Notes: generated by a model from the sequence alone, not told the origin. Counted from the whole stretch's first letter, positions 161 through 43,441 are shown. The stretch: DNA of 63,219 nt, filler included, from Globobulimina sp. (GCA_003354225.1; 32 parts of 32 records of this genome joined end to end with filler, not necessarily neighbours in it); one strand, 5' to 3'. Numbers and translations: made by a program.

Positions 161-279
161 CAGGCCATACGCCGACCAATTGTCATCGATGACAAAAGGT
201 CAGCGCCAACCAATTGTCATCGAGAACAAAAGGTCATCGGAGACAAATTGCCATCGATGACAAATTGTCATTGACGATT
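161..279. repeat. Tandem 17-bp repeat (~7 degenerate copies) with palindromic core TGTCATCGATGACA
   Basis: Units: 178-194 AATTGTCATCGATGACA, 195-211 AAAGGTCAGCGCCAACC, 212-228 AATTGTCATCGAGAACA, 229-245 AAAGGTCATCGGAGACA, 246-262 AATTGCCATCGATGACA, 263-279 AATTGTCATTGACGATT, plus a weak unit at 161-177. Confidence 0.9.
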
Positions 280-334
280 TCTAGAACCCAAATAAATAAA
301 GCAGACACTTGGTTTCCAAATCATTTCACAGAAA

Positions 335-1880
335 ATGAAGCAAAGCGAGAGGTCAGAAAAACGTAAAGTGTCTCATGTTTGTGATATTTGTCAAGAGAAG
401 TTTTCGCATCCTTCTCAAGTAAAGTCACATATAGTTAGGACTCATAATGCAATCTATAAAAAGAATCGAAAAATAGACCGAGTCATTTCACAAGTAATTT
501 CACGTCATCGAACTGAAAATAAGAACAACTCAAAGGAAAGGACTTGCAAACTGTGTCATGCTAAATTTGATAAGCTGTCATCCTTGCAGCTTCATATCAA
601 TAGGTCACACAGGCAAGGACAGTTAAATGCAAACACTCAATGTATTGTCTGCAGTAAAAAATATGCTCGTCCATGGACACTCACCAGACACATGAAAAAA
701 GAACACCCACAAGTTCCTCTTCCATGGAAAAGAGTACAGGAGAATAAAAAATCGAAACCATTTATGCGTCGCGATCCAAGGAATATTAGATATGTGACCG
801 ATACTGATTTGCCCACTGACAACCCATTATGTCCCAGTGCAATTGTTTTGACTGAATATGGATACCCTCCCGGCTCTTTACCTGAAGTTGCGGAACACTG
901 GGATATGATTAGAAGCAAGCAAAGAAGAGGGAAAATCCTTGGTGTTTATAACAAGAGACTTAGCAATGTCCGCTTAGACTCCAGTGAAATGCGTGACTTC
1001 ATTATGCAAGTGCACAAATTACAAAGTCAGCAATACAAACTGCAGGTCATATATTTTCAAAATACTCAGTGCTTTGATAATAAATATTGTGATTTATTTC
1101 AGATAGGATGGGGAAGTTTGCTGTATTCCCAGGTTGACAATGCCTTTCGTTATTTTTGGTCGGATAATTCAACAAAAAGGTAAAGTTATGATGATAAACC
1201 AATGTCGATGTTGACCATAAGTGAATTACAGGTTTTTCGGCAAACCAGTATTAATATCAGGCCAACAGGATGCCTTAAACCAATGTGAAAAAATGCAGTC
1301 AGATGATTGGGTGAATCATATAACTCTGTCAAGGTAACTATATATATTTGCATACAGTGTGGTTTCATCTGTATTTACACTATATTTATTTTTGACCTGA
1401 CACAAAGTGGAAACTTATCATGGTCACAAATATCACGGTCATGGTATATTCACTTGGTAAGACAATTCCGCTTATGGGATGCGCTGGCATCGTCTTACCT
1501 AAATATATAATGAATAATAAATCAGTGGTGACATTGGGAAAATCAACCAAAGGAAAAGAGTTTGGGGATAATCTGTGTTTCTTCCGAGCCCTCAGTTATG
1601 TTCAGTCTGGCATGAAAGTCGACTGTATTCAGTCTAATGCGAAAAAATTGGCTGAATGTTACAGAAAGTTTGCCGATCTACCATTAAACTGGGATGGAAG
1701 CGTGGAGATGGACGAAATGCTGAAGCTTGAACAATGTTTCAAGATCAGGATAAACATATTCCAATTGACAGTTTCGGGAGATCAATCAGATGTCGATAAA
1801 ACTCCTCTGAAAGAAATGATTGCTGAAACCGTGCGAATCAGTCCAAGAACCAAAAAAGAAGCGCCAAATGGTACAATCAA
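335..1880 (+). mobile_element. C2H2 zinc-finger protein continuing into a Polinton/Maverick-like polymerase N-terminal region; 3 introns; 3'-truncated
   Basis: Three C2H2 fingers. Removing introns 1046-1102, 1180-1231 and 1334-1394 gives one frame: YKLQIGWGSLLY...FRYFWSDNSTKRFFGKPVLI...ITLSRPDTKWKLIMVTNIT...LPKYIMNNKSVVTL...DNLCFFRALS...LEQCFKIRINIFQL. I recall this motif order from the region preceding pPolB in Polinton-like elements. Confidence 0.6.
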
Positions 1881-1980
1881 NNNNNNNNNNNNNNNNNNNN
1901 NNNNNNNNNNNNNNNNNNNNNNNNTTAATTAATTAANNNNNNNNNNNNNNNNNNNNNNNNNNNNNNNNNNNNNNNNNNNN
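1881..1980. other. Artificial contig spacer (first of 31 identical spacers)
   Basis: N44-TTAATTAATTAA-N44 recurs every ~1980 nt, gives stops in all frames, and separates contigs that shrink steadily from 1880 to 1877 bp. Confidence 0.99.
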
Positions 1981-2087
1981 TTTTTGTTACTTTCTTTTTT
2001 TTCTTTGTTACTTTCTTCTTTTTCTTGGTTACTTTCTTTTTCTTTTTGGTGACCTTTTTCTTTTTCTTTGTTACTTTCTTTTTCTTT
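1981..2087 (-). repeat. 21-nt coding tandem repeat encoding KKKKKVT, at least 5 copies
   Basis: Near-identical peptide units with synonymous codon variation, running into the contig end. Confidence 0.9.
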
Positions 2088-2350
2088 GGTTTTGGTGGAT
2101 TGGTCACTGATTTTGCATTGTCGCCAAATTTAAATCTCTGCGCAGTGGCACCTTGTTTAAGTACACCAGCTTCGATTCCTTTCTTCAATGCTCTGCGTAA
2201 TGCGGCATTAAAATGAGCACCAGCGGTCTTTTCAAAATTATTAATAATATGATTTGCGATGGCTGTCCTTGAGGCGCCGCCATGATATTGTTTGATGGCA
2301 CCGATTGCTTTACAAATCATAAAAATAAATTTTGGTTTTGGGGCAGACAT
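1981..2350 (-). CDS. H1: Linker histone H1 with winged-helix domain, 3'-truncated
   Basis: H15-like GGASRTAIANHI...ALRRALKKGIEAGVLKQG...RFKF followed by a Lys-rich tail. Confidence 0.85.
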
Positions 2351-3231
2351 AATTAATTTATAATATATATAATTAAAAAATTGAGATTGAGAATAATTGA
2401 ATTGATTTTATTTTTGATTGATTTTTGATTGGTTGTTTTTTGTGTTTGTGTTGGTGTTGTGAGGATTTGATATGATGGTATTAATTTTTTTTATTTTTTA
2501 TAATTTCGGACTTTTTAACACAAATCTATTGGCAGCACCGTGTTTTATTACAAAAAATCTCATTCTCTCTGTTCCTGAGTGCAAACAATAAAAAATAATG
2601 CTTCAATATGAAAAATACAAAAATTAGCTTGCCAGAATCATATACATCAATTTCAAATTGCACACATAAATCATCATAAAATCACCATTTCCATGCTTTA
2701 TAATATTATCCTTTATCTCATCTATAATCCTTTATAACTGCTCCTTTATATCTAAGGATATCGATCGATTTATCATTAATTCATTGATTGAATAATAAGA
2801 AGTCGCAGCTTTTGCTTTATGTGCATAGATTTTGTAATGGAAGATGTGCATAGTTGCAATTGGATAATCCGACAGTATGTTGTTGCAGTTTTTCTTCTGC
2901 TTTTGATGCTAAATACGATGGGATGCGATCATCAATGGCGGTGCGGTTTGCCTGTGTCCTGTCCATTGACACAATAATCTCAATGAGTCGCTTTTTCTTT
3001 GCAAATGAATATAAGATTTCCAATCTTCTCAAACATTTGACACCAAAAAACGACATTTGATGCTTAATTCTAGCTAGCTAGCTCTGCTCCGAAAAATGTT
3101 CACTCAATTAACAAAATTCATTTGTTTATTCCCATAATTTATGACGGGCATAAACCAGATGTTTATATATCGCATTAATTAAAATGGTAGATTCATATAA
3201 CAAAACAAAACAAAACCGTCAAAGTCAAAAA

Positions 3232-3304
3232 GGGGTACTGGCGCAATCGGAAGCGCGTAACGTTCGCAACGTTAAGGCACCGGGATCGAAACCCGGGTAC
3301 TCCA
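3232..3304 (+). tRNA. trnA: tRNA-Ala(CGC)
   Basis: Acceptor stem GGGGTAC/GTACTCC with G3:U70, D stem GCGC/GCGC, anticodon arm TAACG-TTCGCAA-CGTTA, T arm CCGGG-ATCGAAA-CCCGG, discriminator A. Confidence 0.95.
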
Positions 3305-4424
3305 TATATTTATTATATTAATTCTCATCTAAGTATACTTTTCTTTTTTTTGTTTTGTTTCGTGTGCGGTTTGCATTGGATTTATATTTAATATTACATA
3401 CAAATAATAAAAATGCATAATATAACAGCGATTTCTGTAATCATCTTTTTAGTAAATGTTGACATCATTTGCAATTGAGTCAAACATGAATGTTTTCAGA
3501 CTTTTTTTGGAAATGTCATGCAAAGAGTAAGAAGAAAATAATGTTTGATATCATATCGTTTTTATGCAAATATCAAACATGAATGCATCCAAGTGATACC
3601 TAATCAAAAAAGAACGCAGTATTTATAATAATTATGTACGTTTATTTAATTATAAAATGAAAAGCAATGTACTTAATAATTATTAACGTTTGGTGGTGTT
3701 GAAAAACACCTGGTAAAAAATAAAAAATAAATAAGTAATATGATATAAATTTAGTTTTAGTTTTAGTTGAAGCCATAGATGGTTCTTCCTTGTCTTTTTA
3801 ATGCATACACAACATCCAAAGCAGTGACAGTTTTTCTTTTCGAATATTCGGTGTAAGTCANNNNNNNNNNNNNNNNNNNNNNNNNNNNNNNNNNNNNNNN
3901 NNNNTTAATTAATTAANNNNNNNNNNNNNNNNNNNNNNNNNNNNNNNNNNNNNNNNNNNNTTACTATTAACCAGCATGCCACGCTATTCTATATCGACAT
4001 TATCGCCGATAAAATGTGCATTGTTGCATATCGCACCACAACTTATATTCACCCCTTTAGCTCCACCATAATAAAATATTCCCTTCCAACGCATACATGG
4101 GATTATTCGTATCACATTCACGTGCACCATATCAAAATACAAATATTGTGCTTTTTGCTATGGATTTTGCTTTCATACGTTTGAATTGGCATTGTAATAA
4201 ATGATATCGATATATTGTGGTCGTTTCTGGAGGATTGTTGTTTGGCGTGTCTGAATACCATTGTATACATTATTGATTTCAATGCTTCAATCTTGACAAA
4301 TCTCGCGAAAATGGGTGGGATTAGTTTCAATATGATACGAGAACTGGTTTATGGCGTTGGTTTGAGATTGATTGTGTGACATCTAGAAATAATTGAAGTT
4401 CCGAACATTTCCAAAACTTCACAA

Positions 4425-18046: not shown

Positions 18047-19408
18047 ATGGCTTTGTCAACTCGCAGGTATACCCCATTAGCATTACGAAGCCGTTCAATA
18101 TCGCGAGATACTCCCCGTCACATTCCCCGTCTATCTGATATTATCAATCATGTAAACAATTACATAAACTCAACGAAAGACGAAGTTTCAGCCAAACATA
18201 TCACACAACAAATAGATTATTACTCGTGCAAAGTTTCAGAGAGTGTCCATATTAGCATTGATATCCTATTGCCAGATTTTAATAATTTTACCAATCTGGT
18301 GATGATTCGCTGGCTGACAATCGGTTATTCCATCTACCAATTAATCCAACTTTGGAAGGAAAATAAAAAACTAACAAATGAAAATAAGTTCATTACATCA
18401 CATACACGGATTGATGAATGGTTGCCATATATCGTAAAACAGAAATTAGCGCCAAACCTATTGCCGCGTGGCACATACCATCAGCTCAGAAAATATGTGA
18501 TAATGTGGGAAAATCAAGAACTTATCACAAAACTTCCCAAATTACGTGGCCAACATACACATTTATTAAACGATATGATCAAATGGATAAGGTACAATAT
18601 CTCATAATATATACTACATTTTAATATTTTTGTTATGTACAGAGAATTTAAGGAAAAAGTTGAACTGATTGCGACTCAAAGAAACATCGCCATTCCTGAC
18701 AGCATCGACGAGCAAATTGATTTATATGATGTATATTTGCGTTATCATTCTAAACCAGAACCTTTTGATGATGAGGATGGCGAATGTCACATTTTGGATG
18801 CACTGCTTTGTGGATATTTGCCTGGTCTTTGCGGAATGGATGAAAGCTCTGACGATGAATCATCAGAGTCAACACACGAAGATAATGAGGATGAGGTGGA
18901 CGAGGAGGAAAAGACAGAAGTACAATTATCAAGAAAAGATGCCAAAATATTGAAATATAAGCAAATGATCAAGGAATTGAAAGCAGATAATAAGAGATTG
19001 AAAAGTGAATTGTGCAGAACGCAAATTTTGCACTGTCAAGAGGCTCGACAGAGATATGTTTATTGTGAAATAGGGAAGAAACACAAAGAGGAAATAGATA
19101 AAAAAAACGAACAAATAACAAAGTTGCAAGCGAGGAATATTGAGTTAGAATATGCATTGAATAATCTTACGCTGTTTGTGGAGAAATTGAGACAGCAGTT
19201 TGTTGAATGTAAGGAATTGTTGCATAGTGCTATAGATTCAAGGCATTCATCAGTGAGTTGCAGGGATATGCAGTCACAAGAAAGGAATAGGGATATAAAT
19301 GTGAGATGTTGTAACGGGGATAATACAGATATTGTAATGTCTGATAATACTGCGGCTGATTATTTTTATAAGGATTTTAATGTGAGTTATAATGGGACTG
19401 TTAAATGA
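18047..19408 (+). CDS. Hypothetical coiled-coil protein
   Basis: Two same-frame ORFs joined by intron 18592-18642; acidic patch then heptad-like C-terminal half. Confidence 0.7.
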
Positions 19409-37607: not shown

Positions 37608-39485
37608 AAAGCATTGTTTATCAGCTAAACTCCGATCGTTATACAATGATACGATACGACATTCGAATTACGCAGAACGCACAAACCCAATTAAATGGCA
37701 ATTGATACAAATTGGTGAGACAAAATTGGATGATGTAGCATTACAAAAAAAATCATCATTCTGGTCCAGACTCATTAGATCACCGGACACGAATATCTTA
37801 AATAATAATATTAAAAATATGTATTGGAATAAATGGAATGATGAGAGATTAGATTTGAATGACATTTTTAAACAGAAACAAGATAAAAAAGCGACGCATA
37901 AAATTGATACCTTCGATGCGAAAAAGATTGAGATCAATAACGAGATATTTAGAAATAGTTTAGATGAAAAATGGAAATTTGTCGAGAATGAAAGTGAGAA
38001 TGAAGAGTTTTTAGATAGCAAACAGGCAAAAAAGAATATATTTAGACAAAAAATTAAGAAAAGGAAACACATTTATTACGAATTATTCGATGCGGCGATA
38101 AAATTAGAAAGCTCAGATGTAAAATTTATGAAAAATGTTGATTTTGCTGCGGTTCCAAAGAGATTGTCATATCATTTGAAAGCACTGAAACTGCCAAAGA
38201 ATCTATTTTGTTATATTACAGATGAAGAGGGAAAGAAGTTATCGTTCGATGAAAATTGGGTTATGAATTGGGCGGAGAATCTATTTTATTATGATGAGGA
38301 TCCTATGAATTTGAAGAAAGCAAACAAAAAAATGATTCAATTGATATTTTCAGACGGCTCAAATAAGGATGGTTTTGGCGGTGCGGGATTTTGGTCTTGC
38401 AATCTGGATTATTATTTGACGAGAGCTGATTTGGATGATTTGAGGATTAGAAACTATCAACAACGAGAAGGATTAGAAACTATCAAGTATGATAATGGGT
38501 ACAGTGACTATTTCTATGGTGCTGCTCCAACGGCCATTAGGAGCTCCATCGATCATTGTGAGTTGGAAGCAGCTATCAATGGACTAAGCAGTATGTACAG
38601 ATATTGCTTTGAAATTTATGAAAAGAATCCGGAATTGGTTCCGGGTTATCTGTGCTTAATAATTGATAATGAAACAGTGGTGAAGTGGATTGCAGGCTGC
38701 TATCAAGCAGAAAACCTAATTATTTATAACAAAATAAAGAAATTACACGCATTGATTGCGGATTTGGATGATTTTGATATTGATACACATTTAATTTGGG
38801 TGAAGGCACATAATAATGAGACGGGAAACGAAGCAGCCGACGACATGGCAAAAGCATTGGAATGAAGTGGAAAAAGAATATTCAGAGCAAGAATGGAACA
38901 GTTATAGCTATAACGCGGTCAAAAAAGAAAATAAACGCAAATCATTCTACAACACACTCAATGATTGGAAAGATTATAAGGAAGTGAAAAAAAAGGAATG
39001 TGATGCAAATAAGAAGACGCTAAGTAAGAATTTAATTGATTGGGACATTGCATATATGGATACGTATAAATTTGAGATGAAAAATCTGATGAGATGGCAA
39101 TGGAAATTCATAGCACAATTACGTTCTGGCCATACGGCGTTGAACGGACAAAGAAAATTCGGAGTCAAAACGAGAGATTGCGATCATTGTAAGGTGGCGA
39201 AACGATTGAATATCATTGAGAATGTGCTGCATTTTGTATGCGAATGCGACAAATACCAAGAACATCGCACAAAATTAGCTACAAATATTACTGAAATTGA
39301 TGAGAGTTGCAAAGCATTATTTGAGTGGACAAACAACGAGTTATTACGCAACCTATTATTTCCATATCAGGATAAATTGATGGATCCATCGATTAATAGG
39401 AATATAAGCGAAAAGAGGAAGTATTGGAGCCTACGTATTAATGTCTTAAAGGAAGTCAGTGAGTATGTATTGAAAACAGAAAGAA
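37608..39485 (+). mobile_element. Non-LTR retrotransposon 3' part: RNase H + CCHC finger, frameshifted near 38860
   Basis: IFSDGS, CELEA, IIDN, WVKAHNNETGNEAADDMAK; then QLRSGH..CDHC..ENVLHFVCEC. Confidence 0.85.
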
Positions 39486-41802: not shown

Positions 41803-43441
41803 TCATTTTTGATAAAATTTTGTTATGGTCAGACAATCTCGTTTTCGTTGAATATCTGATTCTTGGCCAGTTTCCTTGAAATCAACATAAAAATTTTTAT
41901 TTCGGAATTCCGTTTCCATAGATTCTGAGTAATATGCATCAAACAGCCAACTACGTTTTTCCCATTCATAATGAATTTGAGCTGCATCCCATTGATATTT
42001 ATGAGTGGCTTTTAGTATAATTTGCATGTCATTTTTAATAAACAATGAAGTCTTTGATAGAACACATAAAAGTTGACCTAAATCAATTGGATATTGTGCA
42101 TATTGGCCATACCGATCCGTTGAATAAATCAAAACGTATTTAATATTTGGAAATAATTTCCATATTATTTCTTTTGGATTATTATTGATTGGATATATTA
42201 TTAAATCTTTTATTTTTTTGAAATATTTTTCAATAAAATCAAAATTAAGAACAATTTCCTTGATGCTATTTGTAAACGATTTGAATGTATAATTTATATA
42301 TTTTGGATAATTATTTTTAAATCCATTGATCTTTAATTTATGTCTAATTAAATTATTTAACATATTATAACTACAATTATCAACATACGGTTTTGTCACA
42401 AAATCCTCCGTTTCATTGCCATTGACCATAAACTGGAAAGCAAATAACGTTGAAAAAAATGCACTAAAATTTTGTTTTGTTTCTATATTTAAAATACTTT
42501 GTATTTTTATCCGATAATTGCCACCGAAAAATAAATATTCATTGTCTCCCGGGTAATGACTGATCCACGAACAAGAAAAAGAGTACAAACTAAAATCATG
42601 CCAAGTCCCACAATCATTTAATTCAACAATAATACCGTTGTTATTCTCATCCACATTGCATTTCATACACAGTATTTCAATATGTTTGGTTGTGCTTATT
42701 GCTCCATTTAATTTCATATCAAATTGGGACATTATCATCGATGGCAATCCACAATAAACAGAACCATTTGTTTTAACAAAGGATTCGCCGAAATATTCCA
42801 CTGGAAACGACAAAACAACAAAAGTTAAAATCAAGATATAATTTAATTAAACGAATACTATCAAGACAGACCTGTTTCTGTCAATAATTTGGACCAATGC
42901 CAGAATTCACAAGCTTTGTTCGCTATGCTTTCAATAGTTTGACAATTGTTATTTCTCTCAAATATCGATGCAAAATGACGGGATAAACGGATTGAATCAC
43001 AATATAAAATAATGGATAACACATTTGAGAGTGATAATTTTGTTCCAAATTCAATACCAAAATGTAATGGATCCTCATCCACCCAACACAGGGTTTTTTT
43101 GATTTGGGTGGAATGCATATATTTAGTTGCTTTGTTAACATATTTCTCATATTCACGCAGCTCGATATGATAAATTCTATTTGTTAATATCTCTTCTTTT
43201 AAGGATGAATATTTAAAGGAAATAAATATTTGCTTGTACTGATCATGATTTTCCTTTTCATTTTTATAATAATTCCAATATACAAATTTAAAGCCAATGT
43301 GGTGAGTATCAACAAAATACATATTTGAAAGATACATTTTAATGAGTTCGAATTCATAATCTTTTGTGTCTTGTAAACATTGATTGATATTGGAATCATT
43401 GCTATCATTTGAATTAATGTAAAAAATGACAGCATCTGAGT
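41803..43441 (-). CDS. Hypothetical protein with ADP-ribosyltransferase-like motifs, 5'-truncated
   Basis: VLSIILYCD..FWHWSKLL, intron 42801-42871, VYCG..GAISTT..GIIVEL..SWISHYPGDNEYLFFGG. Confidence 0.5.

Follow-up and report, generated by a model that had tools for sequence, protein, structure and literature searches.

The first contig of the window (by which we mean the whole 63,219-base stretch of DNA analysed here) raises the question of what gene is divided among its neighbouring open frames, and of whether the short segments that separate these frames are introns. The initial annotation had proposed a Polinton/Maverick-like polymerase gene with N-terminal C2H2 fingers and gained, host-sized introns. 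With a probability of about 0.78, we consider the locus to be the first third, at the 5' side, of a protein-primed polymerase gene of Polinton/adintovirus type in which three spliceosomal-type introns were gained within the lineage.

A reading frame divided by three inserts

The window comprises 32 contigs, each of 1,877-1,880 bases, with 100-base spacers (N...TTAATTAATTAA...N) between them, and the gene fragment fills the entire first contig (window 1-1880). Because positions 1881-1980 are an N spacer between unrelated contigs, the contig end at 1880 is genuine, and the sequence to the right of it is therefore not part of the gene. This agrees with the initial annotation, which had placed the polymerase core beyond the contig end. 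Open frames were located on the contig at 296-1183 (with ATG 335), at 1221-1337 and at 1396-1880, the last of which runs to the contig end; the two ORFs first described, at 335-1183 and 1420-1880, lie within the first and the third of these. Excision of the three inserts listed in Table 1 yields a single frame from 335 to 1880 (1,376 bases, 458 codons), reproducing the fusion that had been predicted upon removal of three introns of 52-61 nt. The coding bases contain no stop or frameshift except at the three inserts. Restored junctions read YKLQ|IGWG, TKR|FFGKP and LSR|PDTKW, and the exons maintain a G+C content of 38-40% versus 22.8%, 32.7% and 24.6% in inserts 1, 2 and 3 respectively.

Table 1 Features of the first contig (window coordinates; domain names follow the predicted folds)
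Feature	Position	Strand	Description
Tandem array	175-291	+	About 6-7 units of 17 nt (ACAAAWKGTCATCGANN), palindrome TGTCATCGATGACA; repeat search
Exon 1	335-1045	+	711 nt, 237 codons; ATG 335 after in-frame stop 293-295
Exon 1, C2H2 fingers	about 374-445, 542-616, 638-706	+	Pfam zf-C2H2
Exon 1, rest	D1 from about 947	+	Linker, then start of the terminal-protein-like D1 domain
Intron 1 (putative)	1046-1102	+	57 nt, GTCATA...TTTCAG, phase 0, in frame, stop-free
Exon 2	1103-1179	+	77 nt, IGWGSLLYSQVDNAFRYFWSDNSTK(R), core strand pair of D1
Intron 2 (putative)	1180-1231	+	52 nt, GTAAAG...TTACAG, phase 2, stops inside
Exon 3	1232-1333	+	102 nt, FFGKPVLISGQQDALNQCEKMQSDDWVNHITLS(R)
Intron 3 (putative)	1334-1394	+	61 nt, GTAACT...TTTTTG, phase 2
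Exon 4	1395-1880	+	Open to contig end; last D1 strands RPDTKWKLIMVTNITVMVY
vOTU-like protease domain, first part	from about 1483	+	Catalytic Cys in GDNLCFFRAL, codon 1576-1578

The positions of the inserts were defined by tblastn alignment with homologous proteins. In all four of the homologues that align across insert 1 (P0005, P0006, P0012 and P0017), a gap of 19 residues coincides exactly with 1046-1102. Exon 1 matches P0005 (E 1.5e-22), P0006 (5e-15) and P0012 (3e-15), and exon 2 aligns with QIGYTVLLHQEKTNTFRVYWPSNVKQR of P0005 and also with P0006, P0012 and P0017, in agreement with the family consensus FKIN.SFG.IL.N..T...RYF. At the second insert, P0005 passes from VKQR to FFPTPPTISNSQDLESC (VKQR|FFPTPP), which matches the junction TKR|FFGKP, and its residues 224-257 align with 1221-1322 in frame 3 (E 0.007, 35% identity). 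Across the site of insert 3 the homologues read R-P-[DNT]-T-K-W without a break, and the P0005 stretch QQFREDTSWKL picks up at 1390 onward (E 6e-26). The inserts are placed at positions that are continuous in the homologues, with no residue gained or lost, and all three fall inside the D1-coding part. These alignments confirmed the junctions TKR|FFGKP and LSR|PDTKW of the initial annotation, and the split frame is confirmed as an observation that is placed by homology and lies beyond chance.

No further element genes were detected around this fragment. The minus strand of 1-1880 holds no ORF of more than 102 aa, and the first contig carries no polymerase core, integrase, capsid gene or terminal repeat. 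A tblastn search of the remaining 31 window contigs found no encoded Polinton proteins, the polymerase core included. The sole Rfam match in the window is a tRNA on contig 2.

Family, predicted folds and the setting of relatives

A phmmer search with exon 4 alone against 1.84 billion protein representatives returned 414 matches at E<=1e-3, with 19 at E<=1e-10. The best match is P0004 (E 2.4e-32, 44% identity); among the matches listed, identity to relatives does not exceed 44% and is about 30% for most. Most of the phmmer alignments begin at the first residue of exon 4, the P of PDTKW, and no motif of the family is better conserved than RPDTKW. The consensus of our homologue alignments reads FKIN.SFG.IL.N..T...RYF ... 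RPDTKW....VTN.T ... LP.YI..NK.I..L, followed by Y.DNLC.FRCLA ... LE..F..NI.VY.L ... NH.SYI ... C..C...F.....L.RH, and is the same motif order that the initial annotation had given for known families. D58, C61 and E112 of exon 4 are nearly invariant in the alignment. Other sequence-level searches were less informative: Pfam assigned no family to exons 3 and 4 and gave no OTU match, a PDB sequence-profile search with the module returned zinc-finger chains only, and a word-indexed search for longer proteins related to exon 4 gave no scoring match.

What follows the module was evaluated in the long homologues, taken as every listed match (150 of the 414) with a length of 1,040-1,692 residues, 21 in total. 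Within this listed set, Pfam DNA_pol_B_2 was detected in five and zf-C2H2 in eight, and pattern searches found ExoI in 17, ExoII in 18, DTDS in 12, D..C.FR in 20 and the His motif in 16 of the 21. The profile of the long homologues also matches Vsr endonuclease (E 1.6e-7), a Vsr-like insert. In these listed homologues, DNA_pol_B_2, DTDS, ExoI and ExoII place a protein-primed PolB after the module, as had been proposed. For the gene on the first contig, the strand with the His and the entire exonuclease/polymerase part would fall beyond the contig end at 1880. Its last residues, KEAPNGTI, are continued in P0004 by NFDLCNDHLSVI (the His motif), a C2H2 finger and FDFECI, and this continuation, judged from the protein sequence of the relative, should be the expected content beyond base 1880.

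The N-terminal fingers of the initial annotation were recovered by Pfam, which scored zf-C2H2 at 39 bits against a cut-off of 25.2 over three stretches (residues 14-37, 70-94 and 102-124). The remainder of the module was examined through structure prediction. P0005 (482 aa), which has fingers and the same module and shares 33% identity over exon 4, was modelled with 61 relatives using AF2 (pLDDT 84.4). Foldseek comparison of the whole model with the PDB gave no match at E<=1e-3, with Dpo4 at E 0.015 and DUBA and OTUD1 at E 0.04-0.07. In VIA-align comparisons, P0005 residues 294-446 matched the OTU deubiquitinases DUBA (Z 8.1), OTUD1 (7.9) and OTUD2 (7.8), as well as CCHFV vOTU (Z 6.9) and several nairovirus vOTUs (6.4-7.3), and residues 163-284 matched the little finger of Dbh/Dpo4 (Z 6.5-7.0, rmsd 2.6-2.8, 91-95 residues). 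The tool's own note describes Z values of this size as middling. The window aligns with the D1 stretch of P0005 through exons 1-4, the fold itself coming from the P0005 model. Among BFVD structures, the P0005 model was best matched by a C2H2 protein of Drosophila-associated adintovirus 2 (E 2.4e-14, 541 columns), with further matches to MELD virus PolB (7e-9), bidnavirus-like PolBs, Adintovirus PolB and mavirus PolB (5e-3). Taken with the phmmer results, these supply the similarity to Polinton/adintovirus-type PolBs that the initial annotation had put forward for verification.

Exon 4 of the window itself was modelled with 36 relatives using AF2 (pLDDT 74.6) and compared with 48,161 PDB chains. 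OTUD1, OTUD3, OTUD2 and CCHFV vOTU took ranks 1, 2, 4 and 5, at Z 4.2-4.5, with no chain at Z 5, values too low to stand out from background. Such low values fit a domain that is cut off before its His strand and are not proof alone. Together, the predicted models support the assignment of D1 as terminal protein (TP)-like and of D2 as vOTU-like, as in polinton pPolBs. The predicted domain order (fingers, TP-like, vOTU-like) is the same as the published N-terminal architecture of Polinton/adintovirus polymerases. With 414 phmmer matches, and C2H2 fingers in eight of the 21 long ones listed, the zinc finger-TP-vOTU architecture is widespread.

The genomic setting of relatives was assessed by a metagenome scan with a DNLCFFR pattern, which returned 80 of the 93 confirmed loci. 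A conserved seven-gene block was observed in nine of the 36 loci of at least 6 kb among these 80. It consists of an uninterrupted polymerase ORF of about 1,330-1,436 aa followed downstream by other-strand ORFs of about 170, 447, 140, 250-264, 362-386 and 201-277 aa. Of the nine, only L048 was scanned with Pfam: C2H2 fingers open its polymerase, its 362-aa neighbour is an rve integrase with a chromodomain, and its other neighbours gave no match. By eye, the 170-aa and 447-aa neighbours look like a protease and a capsid protein. A second scan covered ten neighbours from five other loci, seven of them without a relevant Pfam match. A neighbour in L020 is likewise an rve and chromodomain integrase (45 bits, cut-off 32.6), and a neighbour in L003 is a Pox_A32-type ATPase scoring just above the cut-off. 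Because the integrase, the ATPase and the conserved block adjoin the module, its relatives do reside in Polinton/adintovirus-type elements, and the Polinton-like setting of the initial annotation holds for these relatives. With P0004 as the query, no locus was confirmed in the metagenome contigs, and an alignment-based search of viral contigs found no related loci.

Nature of the inserts and state of the copy

The homologues are uninterrupted at all three insert sites, which argues that the inserts are gains in this lineage and supports that part of the original proposal. A GT donor is present in three of three inserts and an AG acceptor in two of three, insert 3 ending in TG. If insert 3 stays in, the frame would close at 1335-1337. 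Insert 1, being in frame and stop-free, could be retained as 19 extra residues. Two other placements of the third intron were considered and rejected. An intron at 1311-1407 (97 nt), the only GT-AG option that keeps the frame, would delete the family-conserved VNHITLSRPDTK and with it the nearly invariant RPDTK motif, and a shift of the borders by one base turns the ends into GG..TT or TA..GA. From sequence comparison, the three inserts are most simply interpreted as spliceosomal introns gained in this lineage, from which splicing is inferred. A contig of sequencing run X1, probably the same data as the assembly, is identical to the window over 1364-1858. Joints across the insert sites were not seen in those contigs of four sequencing runs that align to the region, and runs X3 and X4 gave no aligned contig.

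Candidate introns of similar size occur elsewhere in the window. On another contig, two ORFs of 200 and 266 aa are connected by a 51-nt GT..AG segment at 18592-18642. An intron-size scan with relaxed donor patterns, for GT..AG segments that join two frames of at least 70 codons, gave 171 combinations in the window versus 5 in the reversed sequence; its shortest solution at many places in the window is 51-71 nt, a rough guide from a crude scan with ambiguous boundaries. One gene elsewhere in the window resembles, by eye, a selenium-binding protein. One junction in this gene needs 111-117 nt and not 50-60. With candidates of 51-71 nt on other contigs and one of 111-117 nt, the 'host-sized' introns of the initial annotation are plausible. 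An intron is also found in a relative: L002 contains a clean 73-nt GTAAGT...TTACAG segment that splits FNSSR|YDLNL of the ExoII motif. The three inserts show no likeness to one another, and an introner test found no insert copies beyond chance 9-15-mers within the 63-kb window, a small sample. These comparisons suggest that nothing in the window points to introners, in a sample too small to exclude such a family.

The lack of an AG acceptor in intron 3 draws attention to the condition of the copy. A decaying endogenous copy, in which at least the third insert, if not all three, is kept and no full protein is made, is an unlikely explanation that nonetheless has several observations in its favour. 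Along with the TG end of intron 3, 96% of endogenous vertebrate Mavericks are degraded according to PMC8097293, and frameshifts and a gap of 2.8 kb disrupt the relatives L011, L034, L030 and L009 in metagenome contigs. Against decay, the 1,376 coding bases are intact outside the inserts, and the inserts begin with GT, have similar lengths and low G+C and are exactly placed, as random insertions would not be. A marine metagenome run contains two near-identical pieces of the contig, whose variants over 481-691 comprise 8 differences (4 synonymous and 4 conservative); this small sample also speaks against a pseudogene.

The contig carries only 334 nt of flank 5' of the gene, which hold the 17-nt array, located 45-160 nt upstream of ATG 335. 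The array may be a regulatory or subterminal repeat, and it is uncertain whether it belongs to the gene. Summed contig depth in X1 peaks at 33 over 190-252 versus about 5-8 over the gene. For 1-217, the stretch before 333 and 1814-1880, the same run also contains additional, diverged copies, which suggest a small multicopy repeat family.

The repeat family is relevant to the possibility that the polymerase, or its N-terminal part, was captured from a Polinton and is now a domesticated, intron-bearing nuclear gene of the host. Diverged extra copies in X1 point away from a single-copy gene, and we regard domestication as improbable. The case for it comes from the three introns, since intact vertebrate Mavericks are reported as intronless (PMC8097293), and from P0004. 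Homology of P0004 to six relatives starts at residues 45-60, in three of them at residue 60 (RPNTKW), which is the intron 3 position, and the 59 residues before RPNTKW gave no match. This abrupt start could reflect an intron shared at 44% identity, which would fit an old common intron, or merely a truncated copy. An intron common to P0004 is only a guess, and mobile Maverick-Polinton-like elements carry introns too (PMC11957031). A related proposal, that the window gene and P0004 form a Polinton-derived polymerase lineage with long-held spliceosomal introns, one of them at R|PDTKW, is in our judgement distinctly unlikely. Were it true, the gene would be a vertically inherited, perhaps co-opted nuclear protein-primed polymerase gene and not a recently integrated virus, and the GT..TG insert might be spliced by a tolerant host spliceosome.

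It is quite improbable, finally, that the contig is foreign to the main organism's genome, its source being instead an adintovirus-like virus, free or episomal, or another organism contaminating the sample. In favour of such an origin, fragmentation of the assembly is high, the contig has no links to other sequence, near-identical pieces occur in the marine run noted above, and adintovirus sequences frequently turn up in data sets as environmental contaminants (PMC8502044). Against it, the G+C content of the contig (38%) falls inside the 26-41% observed across the other 31 contigs, the inserts share their size and AT-richness with candidate introns on those contigs, and interruptions that look like introns speak for a gene that is nuclear and spliced.

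For the preferred reading, a protein-primed polymerase gene with introns gained in its lineage, the following mechanism may be proposed. The host splicing machinery would remove the inserts and the gene would be expressed from the host nucleus; spliceosomal introns imply such expression, which is what an integrated copy under vertical inheritance should show. The three C2H2 fingers would bind DNA, perhaps the element ends or an origin. By analogy with the family, the TP-like D1 domain would supply the hydroxyl that is thought to prime replication, and the vOTU-like cysteine protease D2 would cut the priming domain off the polymerase, as has been proposed. The exonuclease and polymerase domains would continue past the contig end.

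Comparison with known polymerases and elements

The closest published counterparts are the polinton pPolBs, whose N-terminal pair of D1 (TP-like) and D2 (vOTU) domains is described by Krupovic, Kuhn, Fischer and Koonin 2024 (PMC11161782), with D1 related to the LF/PAD of Y-family polymerases. The window gene shares with them the TP-like domain, followed by a predicted OTU-like protease with its Cys in helix alpha-1, and the exonuclease and polymerase follow in its full-length relatives. Relative to these pPolBs, the window copy adds three C2H2 fingers in front and three intron-like inserts, and its contig covers the first 458 codons only. The term 'zinc finger' has no occurrence in the main text of PMC11161782. 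In the main text of PMC8502044, 'zinc finger', 'C2H2' and 'splice' likewise have no occurrence and 'intron' has one. Our literature search found no description of C2H2 fingers on these polymerases or of short spliceosomal introns in their TP domain, and supplements may hold such descriptions. The family and its domain architecture are already published, and the C2H2 extension is present in database entries.

Similar correspondences connect the gene to adintoviruses. An OTU-like N-terminal domain is reported in both adintovirus PolB classes by Starrett et al. 2021 (PMC8502044), and the OTU-PolBs of adintoviruses and MELD virus have this domain fused N-terminally to PolB. The best structural match of P0005 is the adintovirus C2H2 protein named above, and in the metagenome relatives the polymerase is followed by an integrase and by the block of conserved, unnamed genes. 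Assignment to the Alpha or Beta adintovirus class needs the polymerase core, which is absent from the window copy. The OTU deubiquitinases (DUBA/OTUD5, OTUD1-3 and CCHFV vOTU) resemble the predicted protease in fold, as judged from the P0005 model, and in the position of the D-x-x-C motif. They differ in that no Pfam OTU sequence match was obtained here, that the His strand is not on the window contig, and that the substrate proposed by analogy would be the polymerase's own TP-vOTU linker.

The locus adds one polymerase of Polinton/adintovirus type, from an AT-rich and probably marine eukaryote, that is rather divergent (no more than 44% identity among the matches listed). Its introns bear on nuclear-gene expression of such elements and on the time for which copies persist in a lineage. 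Because intact vertebrate Mavericks are reported as intronless in PMC8097293, splicing, if confirmed, would be a small useful data point, and the intron finding opens no new question by itself. For the inserts, the nearest comparison is with the dinoflagellate Maverick-Polinton-like elements populated by introners (PMC11957031 and PMC12166617), which also have short spliceosomal-type introns inside element genes. Introners are repeated families, whereas the three inserts of the window are unlike each other and unrepeated in 63 kb. Short spliceosomal-type introns in such elements are uncommon but not unprecedented.

Introns and possible exon boundaries in relatives of the polymerase

One of the metagenome loci with relatives of the polymerase, L002, carries a clean 73-nt intron (GTAAGT...TTACAG, positions 2454-2526), which interrupts the ExoII motif between FNSSR and YDLNL. 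The presence of this intron indicates that at least one other eukaryote has intron-bearing copies of the Polinton-type polymerase family. Predicted proteins of the family often start no more than about 15 residues upstream of the RPDTKW motif (P0010, P0023, P0029, P0037, P0060, P0076, P0116 and others), and in the closest homologue, P0004 (residues 1-60), the homology likewise sets in at this motif. Such starts may reflect an exon boundary that recurs in the family where the window's polymerase gene has its intron 3. Alternatively, they may be a gene-calling artefact on fragments.

Upstream array and other features of the window

Six to seven tandem 17-nt units lie directly 5' of the polymerase ATG. 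In sequencing run X1, probably the source of the assembly, the summed contig depth is approximately 33 over this array versus 5-8 across the polymerase gene, which indicates that the genome contains multiple copies of the array motif or of its flanking sequence. The array may serve as a binding array for the C2H2 fingers of the element itself, or else it may be a subterminal repeat.

The window (1-63219) is composed of 32 unrelated contigs, each of 1,877-1,880 bases, ordered by length and joined by 100-base spacers (N...TTAATTAATTAA...N); features on either side of a spacer are unlinked. Many of the other contigs hold uninterrupted open reading frames (ORFs) of 400-600 amino acids, rich in poly-Asn runs.

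Coordinates of features in the window
Feature	Position	Strand	Contig	Remarks
Tandem 17-nt units	175-291		contig 1	contain palindrome TGTCATCGATGACA
Histone H1-like ORF	1925-2407	-	contig 2	rich in lysine
tRNA	3232-3304	+	contig 2	Rfam 55.7 bits
Histone H4-like ORF, C-terminal end	3763-3860	-	contig 2	runs into spacer
Candidate host intron, 111-117 nt	12411/12421-12527/12531	-		within selenium-binding protein-like gene
Candidate host intron, 51 nt	18592-18642	+
Candidate host intron, 55 nt	38800-38854	+
Candidate host intron, 71 nt	42801-42871	-

Variant forms of the polymerase among its homologues

An almost identical decayed copy of the polymerase was found on three metagenome contigs (L011, L034 and L030); this copy shows frame changes, and a gap of 2.8 kb separates its vOTU part from its exonuclease part. 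The P0038 cluster consists of 12 near-identical polymerases of 1,433-1,446 amino acids from many independent runs, whose contigs measure 4,908-5,244 bases with the single exception of a 308-kb contig. The constant size of these contigs suggests that they represent either transcripts or minimal elements that encode the polymerase alone.

Long homologues, including P0009 and P0022, contain an insert resembling a Vsr-type (very-short-patch repair) endonuclease at profile positions 867-946 of the homologue alignment (A4), between the exonuclease and palm parts. The insert carries a GC..HGH motif, present in 13 of the 21 long homologues, and comparison of the homologue profile with 1vsr gave an E-value of 1.6e-7.
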